A DNA stretch of 64,000 nucleotides from Candidatus Sumerlaeia bacterium. Lineage in GTDB: Bacteria > Sumerlaeota > Sumerlaeia > SLMS01 > JAHLLQ01. Where the stretch lies: contig JAHCAW010000001.1 in the NCBI GenBank assembly GCA_019634695.1, positions 115,921 to 179,920 on the forward strand, written 5' to 3'. The number at the start of each line of letters is the position of its first letter. Positions within the stretch are counted from its first letter, which is position 1. The notes under the pieces are model-generated. The model searched no databases. It was given only the letters and a program-made list of their open reading frames with translations, and had not been told where the DNA came from. The translations under genes and the position numbers were made by a program. Shown here one piece after another: positions 23,563-53,145 of the stretch.

Positions 23563-23584
23563 CCACAGTAATCCCAGAAGAGGC
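23563..23584 (+). mobile_element. ISL3-like terminal motif, copy 1
   Basis: ccacagtaatcccagaagaggc, similar to 53061-53082(-). Confidence 0.6.
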
Positions 23585-23590
23585 AATGCG

Positions 23591-24295
23591 ATGAGTCCTC
23601 TCCGTGCTCGGGCATATTCCGGACTTGCAGTATTCCTCGTTTTCTGGCCATTCTCAATCCTTGCTCAAAGTGCCTTCGATACGGCAAGAAGCTATTTCGT
23701 CTTCTCGGTTCTTGGTCTTCCCACCATGAACAACACTGCCTACTTGTATAATAGAGAAATAATTGAGTACACTTGGATGCCGGGTCAGCTTGGCTTGACT
23801 CTGCTTGCTATTGTGCTTCTCTCGAAGTTCGATGGTCTTGGGTCCGGGGTGGATGGTATTCCGGAACGGTTGGCCTGTCTAGGCAGGGGCTATGGGGCTG
23901 CTGTCACGGGTTGCGTGTTGCTGATCTTGGGTTCGCAACTTATGCAGATGCTTGTGCACAGCGTGGCTGGTTGGAGCCTCGATCTTCACCCTTTTCAAGT
24001 GCCATTCCTGATTGCCGAAGCGGTCTGTGTCGCAACCATCGCGGCCCTATGCTTTCGACTTATCCGGCGGTTTGCGGTCGTTGGCACCTTCTTTGTTGTT
24101 CAGGGACTCTTGGCAGCTGGGGCCGCGTCCATTCATTTGACGGACTTGGGCAGGGAGGAGCGCCAAGGGCTGGAGTCGATGCATGTGACCGCGTATGCGA
24201 CATTCTTGTCAGCTGTTGCCGCGGTGCTCTGCTTTCTCGCGCTCCTTACGATTGGGAAGAGGATTTGCCGACCCGGTGGCCACAGCTTGGACTGA
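23591..24295 (+). CDS. Low-GC multi-pass membrane protein, possibly immunity-type or 5'-truncated
   Basis: Abrupt GC drop, several TMs, lies between RHS remnants. Confidence 0.55.
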   Translation: MSPLRARAYSGLAVFLVFWPFSILAQSAFDTARSYFVFSVLGLPTMNNTAYLYNREIIEYTWMPGQLGLTLLAIVLLSKFDGLGSGVDGIPERLACLGRGYGAAVTGCVLLILGSQLMQMLVHSVAGWSLDLHPFQVPFLIAEAVCVATIAALCFRLIRRFAVVGTFFVVQGLLAAGAASIHLTDLGREERQGLESMHVTAYATFLSAVAAVLCFLALLTIGKRICRPGGHSLD

Positions 24296-24349
24296 GTGAC
24301 GCTTGCTGGATTTCGCATCCCGATGCATCGACGGAACGGCGGGGGCGCA

Positions 24350-25002
24350 TATGGGCGACGTGGATCGACAGCGCCATCGGCACGACGACGCACGCGCGCA
24401 CGGAGTTCAACGAAATCTACTCGATCACGGTCGGCGGCGGCAGCCCCATCGTCCCTGTCTACGACAAGAACGGCAACCTGCGCCAGGGCGAGGGGATGAA
24501 GCTCGAGTGGGACGCCTTCGGCCGCCTGCACACCGTGCGCCGGGCGAGCAACGACGACCTGCTGGCGCGGTATCTCTACGACGCCGACAACCGCCGCGTG
24601 CGGCGGACGGTGACGAATGGCGGCCTGCCCGCCGATTCGGGCTTGAACGGCTCGTGGGACTATGCGTATCTGGGCTGGCGGGTGGTCGAGGAGCGCGACG
24701 TGGCGGTCAGCGAGGAGCCGTTGCGGCAGTACGTGTGGGGCGAATACCTGGACGAGCTCTGGACCGTGGACCGCGGGTTTGTGGCAACGGTGGCGTACTT
24801 CAACGACGGCTCGGGCGCCGAGCGGCTCTTCGCGCTCGGGACGGTGATGCACCACGTCGCGGGGCTGACCGACGAAGAGGCGCGCCTGATCGAGGCCTTC
24901 GAGTACACGCCCTACGGCCGCCCGACCCGCATCGCGCCCAACCCCGAAAGCGACGAGGTGGCGTTCCACCCCTCCGACATCCGCACCCCCGGCGCCCCGC
25001 CT
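24350..25002 (+). pseudogene. RHS/YD-repeat core remnant 2
   Basis: YDKNGNL, WDAFGRL, YDADNRRV, FEYTPYG; no N-terminus and no DPxG core end. Confidence 0.85.
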
Positions 25003-25024
25003 CCACAGTCTTCCCGGAAGAACC
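25003..25024 (+). mobile_element. ISL3-like terminal motif, copy 2
   Basis: ccacagtcttcccggaagaacc at the RHS/low-GC junction. Confidence 0.55.
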
Positions 25025-25251
25025 TATCTGCTGTGACAGGAGGAACAGGGGGGTGCCTCGGAGTGCCAAAAGGAGTGAAGAAAGGAGATCCCATAGTAAC
25101 TGAAGCTTCTCCAAATGGTGTGTGTCGCATGACTTGTGTAGATCCGAAGCAGAAGGAGAAGTGTTGCCAAGCTCCGAAGATTCCGCATGACTACGCTTGG
25201 TATGGATACAACTGCCATGATTGGGCACAAGACTGTACGAGGGAGATGTGA
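25025..25251 (+). pseudogene. Cys-rich polymorphic toxin C-terminal fragment
   Basis: Low GC, in frame with RHS; ends YAWYGYNCHDWAQDC. Confidence 0.55.
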
Positions 25252-25271
25252 GGTCAATCAGGGGGCAGCTC

Positions 25272-25655
25272 ATGGGTACTCGAACCCGAACCATGTTCAA
25301 GTTGGCACGCGACTATAGGACGCTCTGGCTGTTCCTGGCCTTTGTTCTTTGTCTTCTCCTGACACCCTTCTTGATTGTGGGGATACTCTACGGGCCTGAA
25401 TACCAGGTGCCCATTCAAGAGGCTCGGTGGCCGATGAATGAGTCCGAGGTGCGGCAGTTGCTTGACACCCGTCTCCATGAGGCCCACCGAGATTTGCGAG
25501 AGCACCGGATTGAATCAATCATATTGGACCAGAACGTGGACCAGAACGATCAGTGGCATGTGTATGTCGCCGGGATCCGTAGCCGTTGGAACGCGGTGGT
25601 TTTGTTGGATGAGTCTCGACGGACAGTCGTGCTGAGGGTGAACAGAGCTCATTGA
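25272..25655 (+). CDS. Putative immunity protein (N-terminal TM)
   Basis: Immediately after the toxin tip, lower GC, LWLFLAFVLCLLLTPFLIVG; start uncertain. Confidence 0.5.
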   Translation: MGTRTRTMFKLARDYRTLWLFLAFVLCLLLTPFLIVGILYGPEYQVPIQEARWPMNESEVRQLLDTRLHEAHRDLREHRIESIILDQNVDQNDQWHVYVAGIRSRWNAVVLLDESRRTVVLRVNRAH

Positions 25656-25661
25656 GCAAGC

Positions 25662-25880
25662 CGGCAGCCCCGTCGTGCCCGTCACCGACAAGAACGGCAA
25701 CCTGCGCGAGGGCGAGGGGATGAAGCTCGAGTGGGACGCCTTCGGCCGCCTGCACACCGTGCGCCGGGCGAGCAACGACGACCTGCTGGCGCGGTATCTC
25801 TACGACGCCGACAATCGGCTCTTCGTGCTCGGTACGGTGATGCACCACGTCGCGGGGCTGACCGACGAGGAGGCGCGGCT
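25662..25880 (+). pseudogene. RHS core remnant 3 with internal deletion
   Basis: Matches ~24438-24590 joined directly to ~24823-24888. Confidence 0.85.
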
Positions 25881-25911
25881 GGCCGGTTAGCGGCCGGCCG
25901 TCACTTGACCC

Positions 25912-25962
25912 GAGCGCGAGCGTCCCGCTCGCAGGCTCTGGCAGGCAGGATGCCTGCCCTCC
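25912..25962. repeat. Pair of REP-like short hairpins
   Basis: gcgagcg-tcc-cgctcgc and gcaggca-gga-tgcctgc. Confidence 0.5.
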
Positions 25963-26053
25963 CTTCTGGATGACGGTCGCTCGATGCGGCCGCCGGTTTG
26001 CCGGCCCGCACTTTCCTGCTGCTCCCGGCCGGCGGGACGGGCACGGTGGGGGC

Positions 26054-27214
26054 ATGCCGTCGCCTCGACCGTCCATTCTGTTCGTCGCCCATGATACGGA
26101 GAAATCCGGCGCTCCGCGCGTGACGGTGGAGCTTGCGCGCGGGCTGGCGGCGCGTGGTTGGCCGGTGCGCGTTTGCTTTCCGGCGCGGGGCGGGCTGGAG
26201 GAGGAGGCGCGGGCGGCCGGGCTCGAGACGCGCGTGGTGGCCAATCCGGCGGTTGCGATGGCGGGGGAGGGTTGGCCGCGGCGGGTGGGCTTGGCGGGTC
26301 GGCGGGCGCTGGCGGTGGTCGGATTCGCGCGGCTGGCCCGTCGGGCGGACATCGTGTGGGTCGGCAGTTCGGTGGCCGTCGTCGCGGTGCTGGGGGCCTG
26401 GCTGGCGCGTCGGCCGGTGGTTGTGCATGTGCATGAGGATCTGACGGCGACGCGGGGCAACCGGGTGCGGGCGTCGCTGGTGCGGCGACTGGCGCGGGCG
26501 GTGGTGTTCGTGGCGCCGGCGACGCGGCCGTTCTTCGGGCGTCGGCCCGCCGGCCGGCAGTGGGCGTTGCTGCCGAACTTCGTGGACCGCGCGCGCCTGG
26601 AGGCCGTGACGATCGCCGAGGCGACCCGTGCCCGGACGGCGTTGGGCGCGGACCGCGAGGCGTTCGTCTTCCTGACGGCCGCGACGCTTACGCCGCGCAA
26701 GGGGATCGACGTGCTGCTGGAGGGCTTCGCGCGCGTGGCGGCGGACCTTCCCGCCGCGCGCCTGTGGATCGCCGGCGGCGAGGTGGCGGCGCACGCCGAG
26801 CACGCCACGGCGCTGCGCGAGACGGTGCGCGCGCGCGGCCTGGGCGATCGTGTGCGCTTTCTGGGACATCGCGAGGACCTGCCGGTGCTGCTGGCGGCGG
26901 CCGATGCGTTCGTGCTGGCGTCGCGCAACGAGGCGTTGCCGCTGACGATTGCGGAGGCGATGCTGGCCCGCCGCCCCGTCGTCGCCACCGACGTGGGGTC
27001 GGTGCGCGGGATGCTGGCCGGCGGGCGATGCGGGTGGCTGGTTGCGCCGGAGGATGCCGGGGCGCTGGCGGACGCGATGCGCGCCTGCGCAACCGATTCG
27101 GTCGCGCGCCAGACGCGCGCGCACCGGGCGTGTCGCCGCGCGCAACGGCTCTACGACCGCGAGGCGATCCTCGACCGCGTCGAGGCGGTGGCGATCCGGG
27201 CAATGGGCCGGTGA
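26054..27214 (+). CDS. Glycosyltransferase family 4
   Basis: RKGIDVLL, FLGHRED, ASRNEALPLTIAEAM, VATDVG. Confidence 0.93.
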   Translation: MPSPRPSILFVAHDTEKSGAPRVTVELARGLAARGWPVRVCFPARGGLEEEARAAGLETRVVANPAVAMAGEGWPRRVGLAGRRALAVVGFARLARRADIVWVGSSVAVVAVLGAWLARRPVVVHVHEDLTATRGNRVRASLVRRLARAVVFVAPATRPFFGRRPAGRQWALLPNFVDRARLEAVTIAEATRARTALGADREAFVFLTAATLTPRKGIDVLLEGFARVAADLPAARLWIAGGEVAAHAEHATALRETVRARGLGDRVRFLGHREDLPVLLAAADAFVLASRNEALPLTIAEAMLARRPVVATDVGSVRGMLAGGRCGWLVAPEDAGALADAMRACATDSVARQTRAHRACRRAQRLYDREAILDRVEAVAIRAMGR

Positions 27215-27322
27215 CGGCGCTTGGGCGGCTGGCGGCCGTGCATGGGTTTCTCTGGGGGTGCAGGCCCGGGGCCATGCGGAAGTGCTCTCCGGCTTGCAGC
27301 GGGCTGTGCCATGCCGATGCAC

Positions 27323-27575
27323 TCAGCGTGCTTTGAGCACGCTCTTCCTTGCCCCCGGGTTCACCCGGTGGGTGATGTTTAAGGCATTAACTATTGTAGC
27401 GCGCTTCAGCGCGACTTCCAATGCGTGATCTCGTCCTGATCGAGCGAAACCTTTTGACCAAACAAGGTCGCACCCACCGGAAAGCACGCTGAAGCGCGCT
27501 GCGGAAAGCCGAGCCAGGCAAGCCCCACCTGCTGAAGCAGGGGGCAAGGCAGAGCATGCTGAAGCATGCTGAGCG
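27323..27575. repeat. Nested REP-like inverted-repeat cluster
   Basis: tcagcgtgcttt/aaagcacgctga; ccggtgggtg/cacccaccgg; gtagcgcgcttcagcg/cgctgaagcgcgctgc; repeated gctgaagca. Confidence 0.6.
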
Positions 27576-27695
27576 CGCCCGCAAGTGAGGCGCCCGACGG
27601 CCGCATGCGCCGATCGCCGGGACGGGCACTTGGGCCGCTCATCAGGCACTTGATCAGTCAAAATACAAAAGTCTGTAATATAAATTATTGAAAAC

Positions 27696-27955
27696 GACAG
27701 CAGCGCCGGATTCTTTAATTGTGGCTTGGGCGTCTCGCCCAAGTCCGGGGGTCTTGCCAAGAGGAGGGTGCTTCAAGCCCGAAGGTCTGCTCCGAGGTGC
27801 CTTCGAGCGGCTCGATCCAAGCGCAAGGATCGAAACCGGGCGCGTGGTGTGGCTGAACTTGGGCGAGACCCACCTTCGATGTTCAGCTCCGGCGCACCAA
27901 GCGCCCAAGCCACAGTCAACGGCCTCGGCATGCGTCATGTTCCTGGACAACTGTC
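27696..27955. mobile_element. REPIN/MITE-like element, copy A (33-bp insertion in right arm)
   Basis: Homologous to 62969-63197; gtggcttgggcgtctcgcccaag hairpin arms; gacag...ctgtc ends. Confidence 0.75.
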
Positions 27956-28023
27956 TTGGACTTCCGCTGCCGCATCGCCGTGAACTTGGCCGCGGCATCG
28001 GGGCACCAACGGCCAAGCGATGG

Positions 28024-28878
28024 TCAGTTCGTTCGCGCGGTCAGCTTGGCGCGCAGGCGCTGCTGGACGGTGCGGAACTCGGGCGAGTTGACGGTGAGCG
28101 GCACGGTCAGGTCCAGCTCGGCCACGAGCCCCTCGAGCCGGTCGACGCGTTCCTGGGTGGCCGGGTGGGTGGCCATCATGCGCTCGAGGAACGAGGGCGT
28201 GTTGCCGCCCTGAAGGCCGTGCAGCTTCTCGAAAAAGCGCACCGCCTCGCGCGGGTCGTAGCCCGCGCCGTACATCGCGCGCACGCCGTAGTAGTCCGCC
28301 TCGTGTTCGTCCTCGCGACCGAACTTGCGCATGGCCAGATAGCCGCCCGCGTTGGCCGTCGCGCGTGCGGCCTGCTGCGCCGCGCCGGAAGTCACCTGCG
28401 TGGCGAACAGGTCGCCCGCCGTCTGGATGCCGCGCGCGCGTTGCAGGCTGAGGATGCCGTGCCGGCGCGTGACGTGGTTGATCTCATGGCCAACCACCGC
28501 GGCCACCTGCGCCTCGTTCTCCGCGAACAGCACCAGCCCGATGTTGACGTAGCAGTATCCGCCCGGGATCGCGAAGGCGTTGACGTCCGGCGAATCGACG
28601 AACTGGAAGCGGAACTGCTGCGACGTCGAGGGCGAGTAGTCGACCAGCCGCTCGCCCATGCGCGTCAGCCACGCGTCGGCCACGTCGTCGTGCACCACCG
28701 GGTACTCCTGCTCGATCTCCTCGGCGAACTGCTCTCCCATCAGGCTCTCGACCCGCGGCGGGTAGGTCATCGAGCTCAAGGTGCGCTCCGACGACCGCAG
28801 CACCGAGCACCCCGCCAGCGTCATCACCAGCACCGCCAGCATCGCCAGCCGCCCCCCGCGCGCGCAGACTCCCGACAT
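28024..28878 (-). CDS. M48 family metallopeptidase lipoprotein
   Basis: Lipobox LAGC, VNAFAIPGG, HEINH, EHEAD, THP. Confidence 0.92.
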   Translation of the reverse strand: MSGVCARGGRLAMLAVLVMTLAGCSVLRSSERTLSSMTYPPRVESLMGEQFAEEIEQEYPVVHDDVADAWLTRMGERLVDYSPSTSQQFRFQFVDSPDVNAFAIPGGYCYVNIGLVLFAENEAQVAAVVGHEINHVTRRHGILSLQRARGIQTAGDLFATQVTSGAAQQAARATANAGGYLAMRKFGREDEHEADYYGVRAMYGAGYDPREAVRFFEKLHGLQGGNTPSFLERMMATHPATQERVDRLEGLVAELDLTVPLTVNSPEFRTVQQRLRAKLTARTN

Positions 28879-29051
28879 GACAGGACCCTCCTTGGGTTCG
28901 TCGGCCCGCGGACGGGCCTGATCGTTGGACAAGACCAAAGGCCTCAGGGGTTCCCCGGTCAAGTCCCACGCGCCGGCGGGATTGCGGGACCCTTGCCCGC
29001 CGGACCCGGGCGCCGGCGTCGATTTCCTCCCCGTCCCCTGTCGGTTTGGCG

Positions 29052-29089
29052 TTGACACCCCCGGCCCTATTCAGGATATAAGCATCTTG
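29052..29089 (+). promoter_or_regulatory. hcp promoter with imperfect palindrome
   Basis: TTGACA at 29052; caggatataagcatcttg over the -10 region. Confidence 0.4.
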
Positions 29090-29159
29090 TATGTCGTCAA
29101 TAACGCCCGCCCAGTCCCCCCACCACTCCGGGACGGCGAGCCAAGGGAGACCCCCCATC

Positions 29160-30485
29160 ATGCAACAGCCCATGCATTGCGACCAATGCGAGCAAACCTT
29201 CCGTGGCGTCGCCTGCACCAGCGTCGGCGTCTGCGGCAAGGACCCCGACATGGAGTCCCTCCAGAAGATCCTCCTCTACGGCCTCAAGGGCATGGCCTCC
29301 TACAAGCACCATGCCCGCCGCCTCGGCAAGACCGACCCGGAGGTCGAGTCCTTCATCGAGGAGGCGCTCTTCGCCACCGTCACCAACGTGAACTTCGACC
29401 TGACGAGCCTGCTGGAGCTGGTGCTCGAGTGCGGGCGCATGAACCTGCGCACGATGGAGCTCCTCAACGACGGCCATGTGGAGGTGCTGGGCGCACCGTC
29501 CCCGGCCGAAGTCGTCGAGGGCATCCAGCCCGGCCCCGGCATTCTGGTAACCGGCCACGACATGGTGGACCTGAAGGACCTGCTCGAGCAGACGCGCGGC
29601 ACGGGCGTGAACGTCTACACCCACGGCGAGATGCTGCCGGCGCACATGTACCCCGGGCTGCGCGCCTACACGAACCTGGTGGGCCACTACGGCGGCGCGT
29701 GGCAGAAGCAGCGCGATGAGTTCCAGCGCTTCGGCGGCCCGATTCTGGGGACGACGAACTGTGTGCTGATTCCGCGGCCGGAGAACACGTACCTGGACCG
29801 CTTCTACACGACGCGCGTGACGGCGGTGCCGGGCGCCACGCGCCTGACGACCAGCGACTTCTCGCCCGTGATTCGCCGCGCGCTCGAGATCGGCGACTTG
29901 CAGCCGACCGCGACGAAGACCTCGACCGTGGGCTTCCACCACTCGGTCGTGCTCGGGATCGCCTCGACGGTGGTCGAGGCGGTGCGCTCGGGTCTGGTGC
30001 GGCACTTCTTCCTGATCGGCGGCTGCGACGGCGCCGAGCCGGGTCGCAACTACTTCGCCGACTTCGCGCGCTCGGCGCCCGACGACTCGATCATCCTGAC
30101 GCTGGGCTGCGGCAAGTATCGCATTCGCGAGCACGACTACGGGACGATCGACCTGGGCGGCGGCGTGCGCGTGCCGCGGCTGCTGGACATGGGCCAGTGC
30201 AACGACGCCTACGGGGCGGTGATGGTGGCGCTGGCGCTGGCCAAGGCGTTCGATTGCAGCGTCAACGACCTGCCGCTGACGCTGTGCCTGTCGTGGTTCG
30301 AGCAGAAGGCGGTCGCCGTGCTGCTGACGCTGCTGCACCTTGGCGTGAAGGGCATCCGCCTGGGTCCGGCGCTGCCGGCCTTCGTGACGCCCAACGTGCT
30401 GGCGTTGCTGCAGGAGAAGTACGACCTGAAGGGCATCGGTCGCGATGCTCATGCCGATGTGCAGGCGGCGCTCGGAGTGGTCTGA
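29160..30485 (+). CDS. hcp: Hybrid cluster protein (hydroxylamine reductase), short form
   Basis: CDQCEQT...C..VGVCGK, VYTHGEMLPAH, GGCDG, GQCNDAY, SWFEQKA. Confidence 0.96.
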   Translation: MQQPMHCDQCEQTFRGVACTSVGVCGKDPDMESLQKILLYGLKGMASYKHHARRLGKTDPEVESFIEEALFATVTNVNFDLTSLLELVLECGRMNLRTMELLNDGHVEVLGAPSPAEVVEGIQPGPGILVTGHDMVDLKDLLEQTRGTGVNVYTHGEMLPAHMYPGLRAYTNLVGHYGGAWQKQRDEFQRFGGPILGTTNCVLIPRPENTYLDRFYTTRVTAVPGATRLTTSDFSPVIRRALEIGDLQPTATKTSTVGFHHSVVLGIASTVVEAVRSGLVRHFFLIGGCDGAEPGRNYFADFARSAPDDSIILTLGCGKYRIREHDYGTIDLGGGVRVPRLLDMGQCNDAYGAVMVALALAKAFDCSVNDLPLTLCLSWFEQKAVAVLLTLLHLGVKGIRLGPALPAFVTPNVLALLQEKYDLKGIGRDAHADVQAALGVV

Positions 30486-30510
30486 GCAGTTGGTCGCGCC
30501 GCCCGCGCTC

Positions 30511-30548
30511 CGCGCCCCCGGAAGGCCGCTCGCCCTTCCGGGGGCGCG
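30511..30548 (+). terminator. hcp terminator hairpin
   Basis: cgcgcccccggaagg...ccttccgggggcgcg followed by tgttt. Confidence 0.7.
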
Positions 30549-30595
30549 CGTGTTTGGGGGATGGTGTGTCACATGATCTCGGAAGACAAACTTCA

Positions 30596-30623
30596 GTACC
30601 CCGAGCGTCAGCGAGGCGGCATG
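30596..30623. repeat. 28-bp dispersed repeat, copy 1
   Basis: gtaccccgagcgtcagcgaggcggcatg; one mismatch to 52219-52246. Confidence 0.75.
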
Positions 30624-30964
30624 ACCCCGTTCTCCCGATGATCCTCGCCACCACACATCAACGTCTGCCATACCTGTCGGCTGTTTCCGGTTTCCCGAAC
30701 TCGTCTGAAACAGCGGTGTCGCTTGATGGTGCAAGCCGCTCAACCACGGAATGCACGGAACCAACGGAACTCCGTGACCGTGGCGGACAAGTTGGGAGCT
30801 ACGGGCCGGGGAGGCGGACAATTCGGGAGTGGAAAGCCTTTTTTCCGGACAATTTGGGTCTTAAGCCGTCCGGTCGGCGGGGGTGGTTGGAATGAGAATG
30901 CCCCGGGAGCGGCGCGGTGGCGGGCTCCCGGGGCGGGTGGGTCGGACGGTGGAGCGGGTGGCGG

Positions 30965-37125: not shown

Positions 37126-37145
37126 CCCCGGAAGGAGCGAGTTCC

Positions 37146-43414: not shown

Positions 43415-43549
43415 GGCCCGGACCTCGCAGGGGGATTGCGGCGAGCCTGCGCCTCCCCGCCCGGGTCAGGGCAAGCGGAGCGGATGTCATAGCGGGCCGG
43501 CGGCGCGCGAATCGCCGTCGGCCCGTCGCGCCGCTGCCCGTCGTGTGCC

Positions 43550-44437
43550 TCAGTCGCCGGCGGCAAGCGGCCAAGGCTCATGCCCCTCGTCGGGGGCGGG
43601 TTCCTCGTCAAGCCGCAGGCTCAGGCACTTGGCCGAACCGCCCGACAGATGGAACTCGCCGAGCGGCGTACGCACCACGTCGAAGCCCCAGTCGTGCAGC
43701 ACCCGCTCGAGTTCCGCCGAGCAGTCGTGCAGCACCACGGCGTGGCCGGTGTCCACCGCGTTGCATGCAAAGGCGAAGGCATCCTCGCGTGAGACCGCAT
43801 GACGGCGCTCGGCCGGCACCAGGCGCTCGATCGTGTCGAGCGCCGCGGCATGGAACGCCTCGGGATAGTAAAGCACAAACCCGCCGTCGAGCGGGCAGAA
43901 GCAGGTGTCGAGATGATAGAATCGCGGATCCACCAGACGCAGCGGCACGACCTCGACGCCGAGGCGCTCGGCGACGAACTGCCCGGCCTCGAGCGTCGAG
44001 CGGAGCCCGTAGCCCAGCCACAGGCGCTGTCCGCCGCGATCCCACAGCCCGTCGCCGGCCCCCTCGAAGTACAGCCCCGCCGGCATCTCGATCACGTCGA
44101 AGCCGTTCGCCGCGAACCACGTGCGATTGATCGGCTCCTCGGCGCGGCGCTCCGGATGGCGGAAGTGCGACAGCACCACTTGCCGGCCGCACACCAGCCC
44201 CGAGTTGGCGGTGAACACAAGATCCGGCACGCCCGGCGCGGCGGGCATTTCGACAACGTCGGCCGTGCGCGCGAGAGCGTCGCGCAGCGCGCGCCACTGA
44301 CGGCCGGCCTCTTCACGATCGGGGCGACGCCCGTGGCCTTCCATCCACGGGTTGATCGCGTACTCGACCGTGAAGTGCTCCGGAGGACAGACAAGGATAC
44401 GATGGCGCCGGACAACCGGCGGAATGCGGGAGGTCAT
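43550..44437 (-). CDS. Amidinotransferase / dimethylarginase family protein
   Basis: YAINPWM, DLVFTAN, FEGAGD, YHLDT, GGSAKC. Confidence 0.88.
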   Translation of the reverse strand: MTSRIPPVVRRHRILVCPPEHFTVEYAINPWMEGHGRRPDREEAGRQWRALRDALARTADVVEMPAAPGVPDLVFTANSGLVCGRQVVLSHFRHPERRAEEPINRTWFAANGFDVIEMPAGLYFEGAGDGLWDRGGQRLWLGYGLRSTLEAGQFVAERLGVEVVPLRLVDPRFYHLDTCFCPLDGGFVLYYPEAFHAAALDTIERLVPAERRHAVSREDAFAFACNAVDTGHAVVLHDCSAELERVLHDWGFDVVRTPLGEFHLSGGSAKCLSLRLDEEPAPDEGHEPWPLAAGD

Positions 44438-44943
44438 GGGAGTCGTCTCCTTCGAGGACGAACGCATCGGACAGGTGGCCCGACTGGGCGGTGCATGGGA
44501 TAACCAGCCTCCCGCAAGGGAGGGAGGTGCCGGCGGCCGTCGTTGCGTGTTCGACTCGTTAGAGGTCGGGCGGTCGTCCCCGCCGAAAGCGGAAGCGCAG
44601 GACCAGCGTGGCTTTGGGTATACCGTGTCGCATCAGGACCCGTGCCTTGCGGGGTGGACGGCCGCCGCGGGCGGAATCCGTCTCCGGGCCCTGTGTCGCA
44701 CACCCCGCCCCCAACAATCAAGAAGGGCCGGCGGGAAAGATCAAAAATCGGCTTGGAGGCGGGGGGCTGTCATGTACGAAATCGCCGCGCCAGTCTTGAA
44801 CGGGATGGTTGTGGCGTTGACATCGCCTCGGGCTTCGGCAACGAAGGGAAATCGAAACAGGGGCGGGGAGCTGGGTGTTCGTCCCAGCTGCACCGAGCCG
44901 GCTCACCCGCTGCCCCTGTTGTCGTATCTCGGGATTGCGAACC

Positions 44944-45906
44944 ATGACTCGAACCGGACCGATCAACGCAAACAAGCCTCAGCGTTGGAAGGCCGATATC
45001 GCGGCCTCCGTGGACCGGTTCAACACGTGGTTTCTTGACTTCGCACCAGAGACTTTCCGCACCAGTCGATTGGCAACCACTCAGGATGTCGCCGCGGCAC
45101 TCATTGCGACCGACGATCTGCGGTCCTTGACGGTTGCCACCGTGAAGGCGCATCCGGCGGCTCTCGCCACGCTGCGCATGTGCACAGCCCCTCCTCTTGC
45201 GGTCGACCGACTGATCGGCCTGACCGACTCGAGCAGGAGCCTGATCGGTTCGCTGGAAAGCGGGCGCCTTCCAAAGCGGCTCGCAGCCCACGAACTCGAC
45301 GAGCAATTGTCCCGGATTTGTCGGGTGCTGATCCGACTGTTGGACCGCGACATCTTCCCGTGGCTGGCCCAAGGCAACAGACCGACTGCCACGGAAAGGG
45401 ACCGCGCTGCGTCGATCGTGGCGGATCGCTTGTGCAGCGCCGTGGCAAATCCATTGATCCGAAACGCCCAGGAGCAGCGACAACTCGAACTCATCGAAGC
45501 ATGGTTGAACGCGCGAGGGTATCGCCGGCAGGCGCACCCGACCGACACCCCGTTGAGCCAGATGGTGCCGGGGACGTTCGCCTTTCGGATGGCGCTGACC
45601 GTCGGCAAGTCGCGTCAGACACGCGTTCCCGTGGATGTGGTCGTTCAACCCTTGAAGCCTCGGCGCGACGGCATCCCGATCCTGATCGAAGCCAAATCCG
45701 CCGGCGACTTCGCCAACACGAACAAGCGGCGCAAGGAAGAGGCTATCAAGATTCAGCAGCTTCGGCGAACCTACGGTCCGACCGCCGTCTACGTCCTGTT
45801 CTTGTGCGGGTACTTCGGCACGGACTACCTTGGCTACGAAGCGGCCGAAGGCATTGACTGGATTTGGGAGCACCGCATCGCGGACATGGAAAAGTTGGGA
45901 CTATGA
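44944..45906 (+). CDS. Type II restriction endonuclease, XamI-like
   Basis: INANKPQRWKADI, VDVVV...LIEAKSAGDFANTNKRRKEE; coupled to an MTase. Confidence 0.8.
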   Translation: MTRTGPINANKPQRWKADIAASVDRFNTWFLDFAPETFRTSRLATTQDVAAALIATDDLRSLTVATVKAHPAALATLRMCTAPPLAVDRLIGLTDSSRSLIGSLESGRLPKRLAAHELDEQLSRICRVLIRLLDRDIFPWLAQGNRPTATERDRAASIVADRLCSAVANPLIRNAQEQRQLELIEAWLNARGYRRQAHPTDTPLSQMVPGTFAFRMALTVGKSRQTRVPVDVVVQPLKPRRDGIPILIEAKSAGDFANTNKRRKEEAIKIQQLRRTYGPTAVYVLFLCGYFGTDYLGYEAAEGIDWIWEHRIADMEKLGL

Positions 45907-47522
45907 TCGCGCCGCCAATCGAGATTGTTTCGTCGCTGGAACTGCGCCGACAGGACATGCAGCTCCGATTCGACGTCGCACGCGAGGCTACCGACCGAAA
46001 TCGACTCGGCCAGTTCGCCACCCCGAATCCCTTGGCGATCGAGATCGCTCGACTGGCACTCGAGACGATGGGCGAGGCCTCCCAAGGACTGCGCTTCGCC
46101 GACCCCTCCATCGGCACCGGCAGCTTCTATTCGGCTCTCCTTCAAGTTGCCGGTCTGGCACATGTGCGGAGCGCGGTCGGCGTGGAACTTGACCCGGAAC
46201 TCTGCGCGCTGGCCAACGAGTTGTGGAGTCCTTTGGGCCTCCGAGTGATCCGGTCCGACTTCACCCGGCTACTCGAAAGTGCCGGGAGTGGTGAACGTCC
46301 GAACCTGATTCTCGCAAATCCCCCTTATGTGCGACACCATCATCTCGGGCGCGAGGAGAAGGCCCGCCTGCGTTCCCTCGTTCGCCGCGAACTGGGCGTG
46401 GAGGTCAGTGGCCTGTCGGGTTTGTACGTCTACTTTCTGCTGCTCGCGACGGCGTGGATGGAGGAGCAGGGAGTCGCGGCGTGGTTGATTCCCTCGGAGT
46501 TCATGGACGTGAACTATGGGGCACCTCTGAAGGAGTTCCTCCTGAGTCGAACGACGCTTCTGCGGGTCCATCGTTTCGATCCGCGGGAGGTTCAGTTCGG
46601 GGATGCGCTGGTCTCGTCGGTCGTCATTCTGTTCCGCAAGGAGCCGCCGCCAACCGCGCACGAGGTGCATTTCACGTTTGGGGGATCACTCCGTTCTCCG
46701 GGCATGCGAGAGCAAGTGGGCCTCACTTGCCTCCGCTCGTCGCGCAAGTGGACCGAGTTCCCTCGCGCCATAGGGCGCGCCACTCCGGCTGCCAGCGGGG
46801 CCGTGCTCGGAGACTTCTTCCAGGTCCAGCGCGGCATTGCGACGGGCGCGAACAAGTTCTTCATACTGACCCGCGAGCGGGCCGCTCAACTCGCGCTGCC
46901 GTCGCAACATCTCAAGCCGATTCTTCCCAGCCCGAGGAATCTCAAGGTGGATGTCGTCGAGGCGGATACTGACGGCAATCCATTGCTCGATCCGCAACTT
47001 CTGCTTGTCGATTGCGATCTGCCGGAGGATACAGTACGTGCAAAGTGGCCGGCGATGTGGGAGTACTTCCAAACTCCCGGCGCGCTTGACGCCAAGGCAC
47101 GTTACCTTTCGGCGAACAGGTCTCCGTGGTATCGGCAGGAGCGCAGGGCCCCGGCACCCTACCTGTGCACTTACATGGGCCGCGGCTCGGATCAGAAGCG
47201 TCCGCTTCGGTTCATCTGGAACCGCTCGCGGGCCATCGGCACAAATCTCTATTTGATGCTGTATCCCAAACCGGTACTGGCGTCCTTGATGGGGCGCGAT
47301 CCCGGGTGTGAGGCGGAGGCCTTTCGGTTGCTTCTGGAGGTCACGGGTCACGAGCTTCGAAGTGAAGGCCGTGTTTACGGCGGAGGACTTCACAAGATCG
47401 AGCCCAGCGAGCTTGCTCGTATCTCGGCGGACGCATTCCTGAGTCGCTGGCCCGAACTGGGCGCGGCCTGTGCCCGACAAGGGGAGTTGTTTGCCGATCC
47501 CGAGTCCCTCACGGGAACGTAG
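45903..47522 (+). CDS. N6-adenine DNA methyltransferase (gamma class)
   Basis: GQFATP, DPSIGTG, NPPY, GRVYGGGLHKIEP. Confidence 0.92.
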   Translation: MIAPPIEIVSSLELRRQDMQLRFDVAREATDRNRLGQFATPNPLAIEIARLALETMGEASQGLRFADPSIGTGSFYSALLQVAGLAHVRSAVGVELDPELCALANELWSPLGLRVIRSDFTRLLESAGSGERPNLILANPPYVRHHHLGREEKARLRSLVRRELGVEVSGLSGLYVYFLLLATAWMEEQGVAAWLIPSEFMDVNYGAPLKEFLLSRTTLLRVHRFDPREVQFGDALVSSVVILFRKEPPPTAHEVHFTFGGSLRSPGMREQVGLTCLRSSRKWTEFPRAIGRATPAASGAVLGDFFQVQRGIATGANKFFILTRERAAQLALPSQHLKPILPSPRNLKVDVVEADTDGNPLLDPQLLLVDCDLPEDTVRAKWPAMWEYFQTPGALDAKARYLSANRSPWYRQERRAPAPYLCTYMGRGSDQKRPLRFIWNRSRAIGTNLYLMLYPKPVLASLMGRDPGCEAEAFRLLLEVTGHELRSEGRVYGGGLHKIEPSELARISADAFLSRWPELGAACARQGELFADPESLTGT

Positions 47523-47529
47523 TAGCCGC

Positions 47530-49440
47530 CTACTCGAACTCCAGCACTCCATAGCGGCTCTGGTTGTAGGACTCGGCGGCCCAGTGGAAGCGTGCCGGTT
47601 CGCTTTGCGGGCGGTGGCGCCAGACGTTGAAGCCCCATGTCGTGCCCGGCGTCGGCGCGGAGGCGTCGGCGATGTCGCTCCAGGGGATGCGCATCTCCAT
47701 CGTCCAGTGGTCCGGGCCGACGACGATGGCACTGTCGTAGGCGCTCTGGAAGTAGCGGTCCGGCCGGCCGACCGGTTTGGCGTTGAAGCGCGTGCCGGCC
47801 GCGTTCTGGAACAGGCGCGTGTGGTCGCGCGCCGTCATTGTCGGGTCGAAGAACAACTCCACGTCGTCGTCGTTCCACGTCAGCGGAATGTCGCCCTCGG
47901 CGGCGGCCTTCAGGCCGGCCGGATTCGGTTCCGCCATCCAGACACCGACGTAGAGATAGTCCGCATCGTAGAGCAGGCGCACGGAGGTGGCGTGCGGCGC
48001 GGGCCCGGTGCCGACCTGACGGAAGTCGGTGATCGGCGTGGCGCGCTGCCAGGCGGGCTCGTCGAGGCGCCCGTCGATCGTGGCGGCGCCGGTCCAGCGT
48101 GCGGCCGTCGTGCGCGGCGGCACGAAGAGCGCGAACGTCGTGTCGAAGGTGAAAGTCTTGTCGAGCGGGATTGCGGTGGTCAGCAGTTTCTCGCCGGCCG
48201 CGGCGCGGGCCAGCTCGTCGCGATAGCGCGCCTCCCAGTCGCGGCTGACCACGCCGGTGCGCAGCTCGTTGCGCGCCTCGAGGCGCAGCCGCGGCATCTG
48301 CGCGCGCGAAGGCGCCGACGCCGTGCGGATGCGAAACTCCGGCGTGGCCGTCTCGCCCGCCGGCACGTCGAGCCACAGCTCGCGCGGCTCGACCTCGACA
48401 CCCGAGTCCCGCGCGATGTCCCACCGCAGATGGAACGTGCGCTCCTCGCGCAGGCTGTTCGGCACGGGCAACGACACCGTCGTGTCCACCGGCTCGCCAG
48501 GTTCCCACTTCGGAATCCGGATCGTGCCCCCGCGCAATCCATAGCGCGGGATGCGGTTGCGCTCCTCGGAGTTCACCGTGTCCACCGGCAGCACCGAGTC
48601 GGCCTTCACCACGGCCGTCCGCACGTCCGTTCCCACCACGCTGACGTGCAGGAAGACGTGCATGAAACCGCCGCGCTCGTTGAGCTGCGGCATGCCGCCC
48701 GTGCTGTTCAGCACCACGTACTCGATGCCGTCGCGATTCTCCCAGACGTACTCGTGCGTGTGGCCGCCGAAGACGCCGCGCACGGGATAGCGCCGCAGCA
48801 GTTCGTGAATCGTCTCCCAGTCCTTCCGCCCCTCGCTGTCCGCCGCATAGCGCCACATCGGGCTGTGCAGGAACACGAAGATCGAACGCGACGCCAGTTC
48901 GGCCGAACCCTCGCCGCCGTTGCGCTCGGCGTACTCGGCCAGGTCGTTCGCCAGCCATTCGATCTGCCAGTGCATGATGCGGTCGTTCTCGCCGTTGTGG
49001 AACGAGTCGAGCACGATGCAGTGCACCGGGCCGTAGTCGTACGAGTAGTAGTAGCGATCCTGTCCCCACACGTCGCCGTAGATGCGATAGGTGGCCGGCG
49101 TGACGACGTCGTGATTGCCGGGCACGGGATGGAAGGGCATCGTCAGCGGCTCGAGCTGCTTCTTGTAGCGCTCCCACTCGCGCCGGATCGTCGGCACGTC
49201 GTCGGTGTAGCCGTTGATCATGTCGCCCACGCCGGTGGCGAAGTGGGGGCGCAGCGTATTGGCCTCGTGAACGAGGCGCTCGAAGATGTCCGGGCTGCCG
49301 AACTGGCTGTCGCCGAAGACGACGAAGCGCACCTCCTGGTCCGTGGGCACGGGGTGCCGGGTGATGGTCGTGCAGCCGGCCAGCACCAACATCCATGCTG
49401 CCAGCAGCGCGCTCGCCGTCAGGGTCCAGATCCGTCGCAT
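47530..49440 (-). CDS. Lipoprotein: metallophosphoesterase + CBM9/DOMON-like domain
   Basis: LAGC; GDSQ, GDMI, PGNHD, GHTH; IDGRLDEPAW...YLYVG...WTMEMRIPW. Confidence 0.82.
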   Translation of the reverse strand: MRRIWTLTASALLAAWMLVLAGCTTITRHPVPTDQEVRFVVFGDSQFGSPDIFERLVHEANTLRPHFATGVGDMINGYTDDVPTIRREWERYKKQLEPLTMPFHPVPGNHDVVTPATYRIYGDVWGQDRYYYSYDYGPVHCIVLDSFHNGENDRIMHWQIEWLANDLAEYAERNGGEGSAELASRSIFVFLHSPMWRYAADSEGRKDWETIHELLRRYPVRGVFGGHTHEYVWENRDGIEYVVLNSTGGMPQLNERGGFMHVFLHVSVVGTDVRTAVVKADSVLPVDTVNSEERNRIPRYGLRGGTIRIPKWEPGEPVDTTVSLPVPNSLREERTFHLRWDIARDSGVEVEPRELWLDVPAGETATPEFRIRTASAPSRAQMPRLRLEARNELRTGVVSRDWEARYRDELARAAAGEKLLTTAIPLDKTFTFDTTFALFVPPRTTAARWTGAATIDGRLDEPAWQRATPITDFRQVGTGPAPHATSVRLLYDADYLYVGVWMAEPNPAGLKAAAEGDIPLTWNDDDVELFFDPTMTARDHTRLFQNAAGTRFNAKPVGRPDRYFQSAYDSAIVVGPDHWTMEMRIPWSDIADASAPTPGTTWGFNVWRHRPQSEPARFHWAAESYNQSRYGVLEFE

Positions 49441-49654
49441 GATGATTCTCTCGGCTTGTCGGAAATCGGGGGCCGCGGGCCCCCGGCGGCGTTCACCCTG
49501 CCCCGCCGCCGGGGCGGTGGCAAGACGGATGGACGCCCGGCGGACCGGCCGGAAGCCCCGGAATCCTCCGCATTGACGCGGGCGGGGGCGTTTGGTCCAA
49601 GGGCCGCACCGGCGCGCGGCGAGCGCCGCGATTCTCGTCTCCCCGGGCCCGTCC

Positions 49655-50701
49655 ATGACGCGCGGCAAGCTGATCTCCACCCTCGTCGCGATCGTCCTCA
49701 GCGTCGTCTTCCTCGTCATCGCCTTCCGCCGCATCGAGTTCGGCCAGCTCGTCGAGACCTTCCGCACCATCCAGTGGCTCTATGCCGTCCCCTTCGTCGC
49801 CGTCACCTGGGTGACTTTCTGGTGGCGCGGCTGGCGCTGGATGAAGCTGCTGCGCGCCACGCATCGCCTGCGCCTGCGCGACGTCTTCGGCCCCATGATG
49901 GTCGGCTTCGGGTTCAACTCGATCTTTCCGGCCCGCGCCGGCGAGTTCGCCCGCCCGCTCGCCCTCGTCAAGCAGGCCAACGTCCCCTACACCACCGGCT
50001 TCTCCTCTGTCGTCGTCGAGCGCATCTGGGACATCCTCGCCCTGCTGTTCTTCTTCATCCTCTGCTCGTTCTTCATCACGTTCGACGATTCGATCTCGTA
50101 CGCCTACGGCGACCTGACGATCACGCCCGCCACGCTGGAAGGCATCGTCCGCAAGGTCTCGATCCTTGCCGGCGTGCTGCTCGTCGGCTCGCTGACCATG
50201 CTGTCGGCGCGTTGCCGCAACCTCATGCGCTGGATTCTCCACCGCCTGCCGCTGCTGCCGGAGAAGGTCCGCGCGACGCTCGTCGCGCTCTTCGACTCCT
50301 TCGCGCTCGGTTTCGAGGCGCTGCGTCGCCCGGCTCTCGTCGCGCAGGTTGCCTTCGACAGCCTCGGCATCTGGTTCCTCACCGGCCTCACCTTCTGGAT
50401 CATGGCACTCGGCTTTCCCGGCTTCGAGATGACCGTCGGCCATGCCATGGTCTTCCTCGTCGTCACCTGCCTGATGGTGTCGCTGCCGTCGGCTCCCGGG
50501 TACTGGGGCCTGTACGAGGTCGGCGGGCTCATCGCGCTCAAGCTGGTGAACCCCCAGATCGACGAAAGTCTGGCGATGGGCTACACGCTTGTCGTCCATT
50601 TCCTGCAGTGGGCGCTTGTCACGGTCGTGGGGCTCTATTACGCTGGGCGCATCCATGTGTCGGTGAAGGAAGTCCCCTCGGATGTGGAGCTGAAGACGTG
50701 A
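49655..50701 (+). CDS. UPF0104 / LPG-synthase TM (flippase-like) protein
   Basis: RGWRW, NSIFPARAGEFAR, ERIWD, PSAPGYWG. Confidence 0.88.
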   Translation: MTRGKLISTLVAIVLSVVFLVIAFRRIEFGQLVETFRTIQWLYAVPFVAVTWVTFWWRGWRWMKLLRATHRLRLRDVFGPMMVGFGFNSIFPARAGEFARPLALVKQANVPYTTGFSSVVVERIWDILALLFFFILCSFFITFDDSISYAYGDLTITPATLEGIVRKVSILAGVLLVGSLTMLSARCRNLMRWILHRLPLLPEKVRATLVALFDSFALGFEALRRPALVAQVAFDSLGIWFLTGLTFWIMALGFPGFEMTVGHAMVFLVVTCLMVSLPSAPGYWGLYEVGGLIALKLVNPQIDESLAMGYTLVVHFLQWALVTVVGLYYAGRIHVSVKEVPSDVELKT

Positions 50702-52194
50702 GCGTCGGCCTGGCCAGACGAGCGGTGCGACGCGGCGGCCTGGCCGCGGCGCTGCTCGGTGCGCTCGCGACGCTGACCGTGGCCGACCCCGCGGCGCCCT
50801 CCGAGTCCCCGGCCAACGATGTTGTGTGCTTCGTCTCCACCCGCGCGCCGGAGTACCCGGCGCGGCTCGATCATGGCCCATGGCCGGATCCGGCCCGCCT
50901 GGCCGAGCACCCTTGGATCGGCGGCCTCTGGATCGACGGCGTCTGGCAGCCGCTCGACGTGCAACTGGCCTGCACCGCGGTGCCGGTCGGCGGCATCCCG
51001 TTCCGCATCGAGGGCCAGCGCATCTCCTTCTCGCTCGCGCCGGCCGGGCACGACGAGGCGCTCGCCTTCGAGGGCGAGCTCTCCGCGCGCGGCGAGCTGC
51101 GCGGCATCGCCCGCGGCGCCGACGTGACCGGCGGCTTCGTGCTCGCCCGCCAAGGGCCCGCCTCGCCGGCCAACCTCGCCGAGGCGCTCGGCATTTACGA
51201 AACCGCGCTGCGCGACTTCACGCTGGTGCTCGCGGACGAGACCCGGCCCGACGCGGCATGGCTGGTCGAGCAGGGGCGGTTCGAGCCCCTGCGCCCCGTC
51301 GGCCGCGACACCTGCCTGACGGCCGACGGCCGGCGGCTCTTGCGTGTGCGGGACCACGCCGGCGCTGTCGCCCAGATGCGGCTCGGCCCGTGGGACGACG
51401 AATCGCTCGTCGGCGTGCGCCGCACCGGCTATCGCATCGAGCAGGTCATGCTCGACGCGGAGGGAATCGCGACGACGGCACGCTACGTGGCGCGCGACCA
51501 GACACGCCGGCTGCATCCGGGCCTTGTGCTGCTCGAACCCGCCGACGCCGACGCGCGCGAACGCCTCGTCGCGGATCACTACGCGATGCGCTTCGCCGCC
51601 TTGGGGTACTTGGTGATTCAGGTGACAGTGCCTGCCGAGGGTGGCGACGCCGTCGCCCGCGCGGCGCGCGCTCATCTGGCCGCGGACCGCGATCTCGATC
51701 CTGCCCGCGTGGCGCTGCTTGCCCATCGCGCGGCCGTCACACCGGCGCTCGGGCTGCTCGGCAATGCGGAGACGCCCATCCACGTTGCGGTGCTCGTGTC
51801 GCCGCCGGCCGACGTTGCGCTGCCCGCTGCGGACGCCGGCACGGCCGCGCTGCCGCTGCTGCTGATGCTCGGCGGGGACGAACCCGACGCCGCCCCGCGC
51901 GCAGAGTCGCTGCATGCCGCGGCGCTCGCCGACGGCTGGGCCGCCGCCGAAGTGCTCGCCATCGCCGGCGCGGGCGTGGGCTTGCGCCTGCAGGACGATC
52001 CCGCCCACTCCTCCTTCGCCCTGCATCCCGAAGCGCTTCGCGAGCTGATGAGCTGGTTCGCCGAGAACATGCCCGAGGGCACCGAACGCGCCGAGCCCGT
52101 CTTCGACCGCAACGTGCTTCACCGCCTCGACGTCGAGGACCGCCAACACGTGCGCACCTTCTGGGAAGCGCGCCGCGCGGCGGACAGCGAGTGA
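50698..52194 (+). CDS. Exported hypothetical protein with degenerate alpha/beta-hydrolase-like C-terminus
   Basis: GTGA coupling, signal peptide, FAALGYLVI...LDPARVALLAH...LPLLLMLGGDE. Confidence 0.55.
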   Translation: MSVGLARRAVRRGGLAAALLGALATLTVADPAAPSESPANDVVCFVSTRAPEYPARLDHGPWPDPARLAEHPWIGGLWIDGVWQPLDVQLACTAVPVGGIPFRIEGQRISFSLAPAGHDEALAFEGELSARGELRGIARGADVTGGFVLARQGPASPANLAEALGIYETALRDFTLVLADETRPDAAWLVEQGRFEPLRPVGRDTCLTADGRRLLRVRDHAGAVAQMRLGPWDDESLVGVRRTGYRIEQVMLDAEGIATTARYVARDQTRRLHPGLVLLEPADADARERLVADHYAMRFAALGYLVIQVTVPAEGGDAVARAARAHLAADRDLDPARVALLAHRAAVTPALGLLGNAETPIHVAVLVSPPADVALPAADAGTAALPLLLMLGGDEPDAAPRAESLHAAALADGWAAAEVLAIAGAGVGLRLQDDPAHSSFALHPEALRELMSWFAENMPEGTERAEPVFDRNVLHRLDVEDRQHVRTFWEARRAADSE

Positions 52195-52218
52195 TGCGGT
52201 TTCGAATCACCGCAATCG

Positions 52219-52246
52219 GTACCCCGAGCGTTAGCGAGGCGGCATG
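52219..52246. repeat. 28-bp dispersed repeat, copy 2
   Basis: gtaccccgagcgttagcgaggcggcatg. Confidence 0.75.
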
Positions 52247-52386
52247 TCCACGCCCTCCCACGCTCTCCAATCGCGGCGAGCGGAGGGGGCCTCTGTCGCG
52301 ATCTGTATACGGCCAAATATTCACTTCCTATCCACCAAATGGATGGGAAGCGAAGCGCCTTCGCATGGCACGAGGTCCCCTACAGA

Positions 52387-52932
52387 TCAAGGGAAGAGCT
52401 TCTTCTTGATTCGTTCGACCTCCCTCGAAAAGCCAGCAAGCTGGCTGATAATGGTCGGCCCTCCGACAGGGCCGAACAGAACTGCTTGCTTGGACTTGCC
52501 GCCGGGCCATGTGACGACCTGCGTTGCCCCTTTGTAGTTCGCGAAGAAGTCCGGCGATTTTACTTTCGATCTGCCCACTGTAAACTCGCCGCAATGCGCC
52601 AAGTAGAGTCTCGCATTGGAGTCGCGCAGGAAGCACCCCTTCGTCTGGCTGGTTCCTGTGTCCTTCTTCGGGTTTATTTGAAACATCGGTACTTGCTTGC
52701 CTTGGACAGTGGGGTCTTCATGACCGTACACGATCCAATATCGAGCCCCACCGGGCCACTCGTCGATATGGTTCCAAACCCCCTCATTCGCAAACCAATA
52801 GCAACCACTTCCGCCACCCCCGGCGGTTTCGACTCGGAAGTTTGCAACATAATGGCCGACACTTTGTATGAAAGCCTGATACTCTTGGAACGCCTTCTGG
52901 ATCTCTGGCGAGGTGTTCAAGGTTTTTAGCAT
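52387..52932 (-). CDS. Low-GC hypothetical protein
   Basis: 181 aa ORF with GGGGG RBS-like run in an AT-richer islet. Confidence 0.65.
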   Translation of the reverse strand: MLKTLNTSPEIQKAFQEYQAFIQSVGHYVANFRVETAGGGGSGCYWFANEGVWNHIDEWPGGARYWIVYGHEDPTVQGKQVPMFQINPKKDTGTSQTKGCFLRDSNARLYLAHCGEFTVGRSKVKSPDFFANYKGATQVVTWPGGKSKQAVLFGPVGGPTIISQLAGFSREVERIKKKLFP

Positions 52933-53060
52933 CGCACATACCCCCCGTTACCGAACTGACGCTAACCATACTGAGTATACAGGAAACAAGGGTTGAAACC
53001 TGTCAGGATGTCAACAGGAAATTCCCGAAGGGCGCCTCGCGGTCATCAGCATCCCAAGGA

Positions 53061-53145
53061 GCCTCTTCCGGCTTCACTGTGGATGGAGTCGGAGACCCGC
53101 GCAGTGGAAGTAGATGGCGTTGATGAAGCGTCCGATGTTCGCAAG
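53061..53145 (-). mobile_element. ISL3-family remnant: transposase C-terminus and right end
   Basis: RFINAIYFHCAGLRLHP matches the ISL3 C-terminal NAIYFHxGGLxLxP; ends ccacagtgaagccggaagaggc. Confidence 0.75.

Follow-up and report, generated by a model that had tools for sequence, protein, structure and literature searches.

Solo ends of ISL3-family insertion sequences beside low-GC foreign genes and RHS core fragments in a Sumerlaeia genome

In a 64,000-nt stretch of the draft genome of a Candidatus Sumerlaeia bacterium (the window: C1:115921-179920 of a 4.35-Mb metagenome-assembled genome, or MAG, with 127 contigs, a GC content of 0.674 and 85.9% completeness), the same 22-base motif stands at three places where the GC content falls and foreign genes begin, two of them joints with fragments of RHS cores. 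How conserved RHS cores come by new low-GC tips and immunity genes is poorly understood, and an insertion sequence (IS) end exactly at a core/tip joint would be a lead; the question raised by this locus is whether the motif is such a lead or a leftover. A sequence-only reading of the window had taken the motif for an ISL3 end and had offered two origins for the joints: repeated IS insertion followed by deletions that leave the right end, or IS ends reused as recombination sites that shuffle toxin/immunity cassettes. We find that the motif is the terminal inverted repeat (IR) of ISL3-family insertion sequences, and that the feature is real and most likely ordinary mobile-element debris, in the form of solo IS ends; the evidence points away from a lead on RHS tip attachment.

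A scan of the window with the pattern CCACAGTNNNSCCRGAAGA gave matches at 23563-23581 (+), 25003-25021 (+) and 53064-53082 (-), the three sites seen before, and no further match with up to two mismatches allowed. A mean of 0.10 matches is expected by chance, and none of 100 dinucleotide-preserving shuffles of the window reached three, which speaks against an occurrence at chance frequency. Genome-wide, the exact pattern returned the same three copies, and one mismatch added two more (C1:2966-2984, reverse strand, and C51:3821-3839, forward strand). A looser pattern (CCAC-N10-GAAGA[GA][GC]C) matched 13 times in the genome, versus four times for its reversed control; just five of the 13 have both the CCACA.T core and a drop in GC, and these are the five relics considered here. 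The GC content of the 300 nt before and after the five relics is 0.63/0.50, 0.71/0.52, 0.68/0.52, 0.68/0.58, and 0.69/0.53: it is lower on the same side, outside the IS tip, in all five, as had been said of the three window copies, and low-GC foreign DNA begins at the tip or at most ~130 nt from it in every case. The relics differ from one another in sequence and lie inside contigs, not at contig ends. No inverted partner of any relic was found in the window or the genome (up to two mismatches in the window, and with the looser pattern too); each site has one IS end and retains ~22-80 nt of the element. Weak matches on three other contigs (C106, C108, and C79) were set aside, having neither a sharp GC change nor an IS-like flank, and motif matches in 3 of 24 other genomes of the order were judged to be chance, as they lie in coding DNA with unchanged GC. 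The exact sequences of copies 1 and 2 had no match in the collection of genome contigs. No relic overlaps a promoter-like site in a scan with the sigma-70 consensus, which is possibly ill-suited to this phylum, and the idea of the IR as a promoter source thus has no support.

The identity of the motif follows from comparison with intact elements. A complete genome of the same class (G068) contains four identical 1558-bp ISL3 copies, whose comparison fixes their ends: the element closes with ..CCACAGATTCCTTTGAAGAGGC on the right and opens with GGTTCTTTGAAAGAATTTGTGG.. on the left, and the transposase stop codon lies inside the right repeat. Each copy is flanked by an AT-rich 8-bp target duplication (ATTTTTTT, AAAAACAA, GAAAAATT, and CTTTTTCT); these intact copies are the only source of the 8-bp duplications known here. 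It follows from this end structure that the element tip comes directly after GAAGAGGC or GAAGAACC, and that the CCACAG side is interior. The window copies agree with the G068 right end at 15 of 22 positions (CCACAG, the central C, and GAAGAGGC), and with the ISL3 ends on two other sequences, L141 and L181, at 19-21 of 22 positions, which upholds the earlier attribution to ISL3. Among the metagenome contigs scanned with the motif (80 of 88 matching stretches examined), six stretches had a transposase match, and three contigs (L090, L105, and L112) carry intact ISL3 elements of 1337-1354 bp with both repeats (end CCACAGTAAACCCGGAAGAACC). In L141, the transposase ends with ..GKLDLYPQ and its stop directly in CCACAGTAATCCCGGAAGAACC, a right end that agrees with copy 1 in 19 of 22 positions. 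Remnants of ISL3 without a transposase are frequent outside this genome: miniatures derived from it, 60-342 bp long and with both repeats, come from diverse metagenomes and MAGs (L091, L096, L159, L160, L163, L193, L209, and L224). The transposase domain PF01610 (DDE_Tnp_ISL3) is present in 11 of 73 genomes of the class; in the MAG studied here, which is 85.9% complete, there is no match at E<=0.01 (three candidates scored).

The flanks of the copies carry the assignment further. At copy 3, the 42-aa reading upstream of the motif matched two PF01610-bearing proteins in a large protein search: the reading ends ..RFINAIYFHCAGLRLHPQ before its stop, the PF01610 proteins end ..RFINAIYFHCAGLRLHPL, and the common part is ..RFINAIYFHCAGLRLHP. 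The last 19 residues align and 18 of them are identical, so the stub had rightly been called the C-terminus of an ISL3 transposase; since only about the last 19 codons are recognisable, it measures ~75-80 nt, not the full 122-nt spacer. DNA and protein searches of a plasmid database with the stub gave no match, nor did Pfam return an ISL3 match for it, and BLASTP of the stubs against the G068 transposase gave none; the large protein search was the sole source of the link. Copy 1, read in the frame CCA CAG TAA, yields RGSFAHPQ and a stop (compare AGLRLHPQ and a stop at copy 3), and the preceding 13-18 nt (~23545-23562) probably represent the final codons of a transposase. Copy 2 shares 21 of 22 positions and seven further interior bases with the left end of a multicopy ISL3 in a Nitrospirae MAG, located at four contig ends (L181, L205, L233, and L235). 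The opposite strand at that end opens a transposase (MQDKELYRQLMGLG; compare MKDTELYRVLLGL, the N-terminus of P0004), so that copy 2 is assigned to a left end; judged by these sequence comparisons, copies 1 and 3 are right ends and copy 2 is a left end (Table 1). Typing ends as left or right from their final three bases was given up, since GAAGAACC also occurs as the right end of intact ISL3 elements. P0004 and a second PF01610-bearing protein from JGI metagenomes, P0003 (163 and 106 aa, respectively), each have a transposase-like N-terminus and an ISL3 C-terminus with little between, and we take them to be internally deleted ISL3 transposases.

Table 1. Features of the RHS fragment island and of the 53-kb site, in window coordinates.
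Feature	Position	Strand	Remarks
Whole island	22474..26075	.	Two small unknown genes and RHS fragment array, 3.6 kb
RHS core fragment 1	23441..23549	+	Equals 24584-24685 of fragment 2, 92% over 102 nt
Copy 1, ISL3 right-end IR	23563..23584	+	Tip after GAAGAGGC
Cassette B, 234-aa predicted membrane protein, no family	23591..24295	+	Low GC; ATG 6 nt past the tip of copy 1
RHS core fragment 2	24292/24349..24999	+	YD repeats; without terminal Rhs-associated core domain
Copy 2, ISL3 left-end relic	24995..25024	+	IR 25003-25024, tip after GAAGAACC; ~8 nt of interior, CCCCGCCT
Cassette D	25025..25655	+	Low GC; Cys-rich 75-aa tail continuing the frame of fragment 2 (to 25251), and 127-aa ORF 25272-25655
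RHS core fragment 3	25662..25881	+	Two parts with internal deletion between
181-aa low-GC ORFan	52387..52932	-	Downstream of copy 3
Copy 3, ISL3 right-end IR and transposase stub	53061..53140	-	IR 53061-53082; stub about the last 19 codons

What adjoins the IS ends is less than an RHS gene. By stop-to-stop frames and Pfam, the locus has three short core fragments and no RHS gene, and no long RHS frame lies upstream that could be a full-length core (>1000 aa) with its N-terminal region; the earlier description of an RHS core breaking off at the motif is right about the joints, which do lie at the motif, and not about the gene. Fragment 2 scores 21.3 bits on TIGR01643 (cut-off 15.8), so YD/RHS repeats are present; its PF05593 score is 18.4 bits, under the cut-off of 22, and tblastn to RHS proteins of relatives gives 35-51% identity. 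It has no match to TIGR03696, the Rhs-associated core domain, and its homology stops ~30 aa short of the core end seen in relatives, which run on ..FTGQ..ETGL.YY..RYYD..GRF..RDPIG before their tips. Copy 2 lies in an open frame (23767-25248) that holds RHS fragment 2 and the tail; because the core is cut ~30 aa before its conserved end, this fusion is an open frame and not a canonical core/tip junction, and of the claim that copy 2 keeps an RHS and a toxin tip in one reading frame, the frame is what stands. The two parts of fragment 3 repeat fragment 2 (25662-25817 equals 24438-24593, 96%; 25809-25881 equals 24816-24888, 90%). The sole other PF05593 match in the genome is on contig C73. In a same-genus genome, the counterparts of window 20920-22473 and 26075-27191 are only ~300 bp apart, between the rnpA/rpmH side and a glycosyltransferase gene, and the whole 3.6-kb block is therefore extra here.

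None of the cassette proteins (234, 75, 127, and 181 aa) matches Pfam or NCBIfam at the curated thresholds, the 234-aa open reading frame (ORF) having a weak Pfam match below threshold (PMP22_Claudin, 17.9 bits), and for those searched no homologue was found in the 74 other genomes of the phylum (75 in the collection). A search with the Cys-rich tail, covering longer proteins only, returned the window's own protein alone, and the 181-aa ORF found only itself among the similar-length proteins of a 5.8-billion-protein database. No direct repeat was found bracketing the 53-kb island.

Population variants of the island were read from Logan contigs of four runs from four studies (X1, X2, X4, and X5), aligned to 22400-26200; gaps in contig cover were counted as absence only where a contig joins across. 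One X2 contig (676 nt, 23503-24178, without differences) bridges fragment 1, the IR and the membrane gene, and a second covers 22400-23475, taking in the left edge of fragment 1. Cassette B is missing from an X1 contig in which 23494 is joined to 24631, and cassette D from contigs of X2 and X5 in which 24833 is joined to 25827; both variant joints fall within RHS repeats and not at the motif. Cassettes are thus gained and lost among strains by homologous recombination between RHS core repeats, independently of the IS relics, and in these contigs the variable tips do not switch at the motif. An X4 contig tracks fragment 2 to 24999 and then runs on as normal core (..NPF..), unlike the window, which places the end of RHS homology at 24999. 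At copy 2, RHS sequence reaches 24999 and IS-like sequence starts at 24995, an overlap of 5 nt (CCCCG); at copy 1, ..GCGTGG closes the RHS sequence, and the reading in the IS frame sets in within GTGGG. By their sequence, both junctions between RHS and IS resemble deletion joints at short homologies. In the assembly-chimera check, the copy-1 junction is bridged by an independent contig, and no contig bridging 25002/25003, the copy-2 junction, was found among the matches listed. In run X2, where cassette D is uncovered, a 31-nt unitig of depth 22.5 spans 24995-25024 and ends at the copy-2 tip; it is likely due to an intact multicopy ISL3 with this end in the X2 community.

Some short sequences at the island stand apart from these joints. 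The start of fragment 1 (23441-23450) and the end of the first part of fragment 3 (fragment 3a) share CCGACAATCG, which gives 23441-25817 the appearance of one unit in circular permutation. At its joint, fragment 3a meets GCTCTTCG.. (near 25808-25825), a sequence resembling an ISL3 left tip. Within the RHS coding sequence, GGCTCTTCG (24824-24832) and CGAAGAGGC (24870-24878) form an inverted, ISL3-tip-like pair over 55 bp.

Beyond this genome, ISL3 ends and RHS genes were not found together. With six RHS queries, tblastn found RHS homology at none of 80 metagenome loci and none of 80 genome loci that bear the motif, and the motif is absent from all 17 RHS loci of relatives (47 kb in total); there is no general link between ISL3 ends and RHS. 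Within the genome, three of the five relics are in an RHS context: copies 1 and 2 at joints of RHS fragments with foreign ORFs, and the C51 relic in an RHS locus.

The explanation that we regard as probable starts with ISL3 insertion next to foreign AT-rich genes, after which the elements were deleted down to the tip. In a genome of 67% GC, the sole AT-rich DNA on offer would have been low-GC genes gained by horizontal transfer, several of which belong to decayed RHS toxin/immunity arrays, and ISL3 would have inserted into these or a short way upstream. Subsequent deletions would then have taken the transposase together with the neighbouring DNA of that side, one deletion end falling a few tens of bases inside the IS tip and the other in the adjoining high-GC DNA, be it intergenic spacer or a fragment of RHS core, and the tip alone would be left, still abutting the foreign gene. 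RHS arrays would be prominent among the sites because they are rich in low-GC DNA and prone to recombination. The former presence of intact IS copies at these sites, and deletion as the source of the joints, are what we infer from the remains; the debris context is in keeping with it, the C1:2963 relic lying between IS66 ends and P0003 and P0004 being, by our reading, shortened ISL3 transposases. The joints are truncated and non-canonical, it is the core repeats that move the cassettes, and the IS ends have the look of debris. Insertion followed by deletion, the first of the two origins offered earlier, is the best-supported one, with short-homology joints in its favour; its detail that only right ends remain gives way at copy 2, a left end by its sequence.

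Several observations weigh against this explanation. All five relics keep at most 80 nt, with no longer remnant and no PF01610 match in the MAG; with random deletion ends in a 1.35-1.56-kb element, the chance of this would be ~(80/1400)^5 by our own arithmetic, an improbability which leaves something non-random to explain. Selection acting on the 5' part of the gene downstream, prolonged erosion, or some mechanism that involves the end itself might account for it. None of the sites showed an allele with the IS intact. Being different in sequence from each other, the five relics do not stem from a single recent burst of an IS family. The 53-kb stub has an island-like GC of 0.57-0.63, which a joint arrival with the foreign gene would explain no less well. 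Finally, completeness of the MAG is 85.9%, and IS present in many copies often go unassembled; in run X2, which lacks cassette D, the unitig over 24995-25024 has a depth of 22.5.

The main rival, in our estimate unlikely, is a joint arrival of the IS end and its neighbouring foreign gene from a low-GC donor, with later loss of the transposase part; the routes would be read-through or one-ended transposition, or import as one fragment. ISEcp1 mobilises DNA next to one IS end by read-through or one-ended transposition, and here, too, a foreign gene starts just outside one IS end. Such an arrival would account for low-GC foreign DNA at or within ~130 nt of the tip at all five sites, for the island-like GC of the 53-kb stub and for the differences among the five IRs, which separate imports would show; near-identical IRs do occur in low-GC organisms (e.g., the Nitrospirae MAG, with ~0.47 GC beside the end), and cassette B is a single ORF that begins 6 nt past the tip. 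Unlike ISEcp1-type mobilisation, however, the sites have no transposase or target duplication, and a surrogate second end was sought without success on the far flank of the cassettes (up to two mismatches, and in a looser scan). No homologue of a cassette gene was found, hence no donor context, and deletion of the IS body would still be needed in five of five cases.

A role for the ends themselves is far less probable. The second origin offered earlier, in which recombination at ISL3 ends, true or pseudo, fuses toxin/immunity cassettes to RHS fragments or exchanges them there, is kept alive by the shared CCGACAATCG, the joining of fragment 3a to GCTCTTCG, the GGCTCTTCG/CGAAGAGGC pair and the X2 unitig of depth 22.5, which reaches the copy-2 tip though cassette D is absent; moreover, three of five relics are in RHS loci, two of them exactly at RHS-fragment/foreign-ORF joints. 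An intact multicopy IS explains the high-depth unitig more simply, however, and the population variants join inside the RHS repeats (23494 to 24631 and 24833 to 25827), not at the tips. The fusions are no functional designs, the core being cut before the Rhs-associated core domain; RHS homology was seen at 0 of 160 motif loci and the motif at 0 of 17 RHS loci of relatives, and the MAG has no transposase. We therefore hold this origin to be very improbable. Very improbable as well, we think, is a version in which an ISL3 transposase, acting on true ends and on the tip-like GGCTCTTCG/CGAAGAGGC of the RHS core, made the joints, and units of RHS fragment, IR and ORF spread between strains as 1136-bp and 993-bp circles that integrate through homology to the RHS fragments already resident; one event of this kind would then have left the shared CCGACAATCG as its 8-10-bp duplication, and, if true, this would be an IS-driven route for RHS loci to capture new cargo. 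Chance similarity or an assembly chimera is scarcely credible as an explanation: the pattern was defined after the copies had been seen, and the MAG is a draft of 127 contigs, but the shuffles never reached three matches, the match to independent ISL3 ends extends into transposase codons, and the relics are non-identical, so that there is no collapsed repeat. For copy 1 a chimera is contradicted by the contigs from other studies' runs, which cover its junction and the left boundary of fragment 1.

Measured against known systems, the relics share with the ISL3 family the IR blocks (CCACAG...GAAGA(G/A)(G/C)C) and the stop codon inside the right repeat, and the intact copies examined have AT-rich 8-bp target duplications as well; they differ in lacking a transposase, in having one end per site and in keeping at most 80 nt of the element. 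Like solo IS ends and miniature inverted-repeat transposable elements (MITEs), they are short, without transposase and with the terminal repeat kept, and the same genome has a solo IS66 end; having no inverted partner, the five are not MITEs. ISPpu12 is described as an ISL3 member with passenger genes (PMC4133298). The island resembles Rhs orphan arrays in its tandem partial cores, its low-GC tip-like and immunity-like genes and its core-repeat recombination; unlike them, it has no adjacent main rhs gene, and its fragments lack the conserved core end. An account of Escherichia coli Rhs loci places the IS-like H-rpt among the tips (PMC3032704), a precedent for IS-like sequence there; unlike H-rpt, the IS here is ISL3 and is reduced to its tip. 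No description of ISL3 ends at RHS joints was found in literature titles and abstract openings, which is weak evidence of absence. The window thus offers an annotated example, from a little-studied phylum, of ISL3 relics marking the borders of imported genes, and shows that a short motif can flag foreign-gene boundaries; the puzzle that remains is the survival of only the last 80 nt or less in five of five relics.

The two relics outside the window lie among repeats of their own. The C51 stretch (1-5200, L156) opens with an RHS core end carrying TIGR03696 (43.6 bits) and a tip, followed by ORFs of no family; farther on, the ISL3 stub and two low-GC membrane ORFs stand between 59-61-nt repeats (3628-3686 and 5130-5188, 90% identity). 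These repeats, whose core is dispersed in the genome, do not speak for a long target duplication. The C1:2963 relic is flanked, within C1:2891-3266, by IS66-family end fragments (2997-3061 and 2891-2955, 78% alike) and adjoined by a broken tnpA-like ORF; here the repeats are the IS66 ends, and they do not speak for a long target duplication either. A third copy of the IS66 end (C2:~22500-22995, L155) ends an IS66 tnpA/tnpB unit judged intact by eye.

Around the RHS fragments, the left part of the island (22547-23418) consists of two adjacent ORFs of 122 and 167 aa, which match no Pfam or NCBIfam family and have no counterpart in the same-genus genome. Just past RHS fragment 3, at 25912-25966, is a short dispersed repeat with copies on six other contigs (76-89% identity). 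Outside the island, ~180 bp at 20570-20749 match dozens of places in each of four related genomes (71-86% identity), and may be a shared protein tag or a dispersed repeat.

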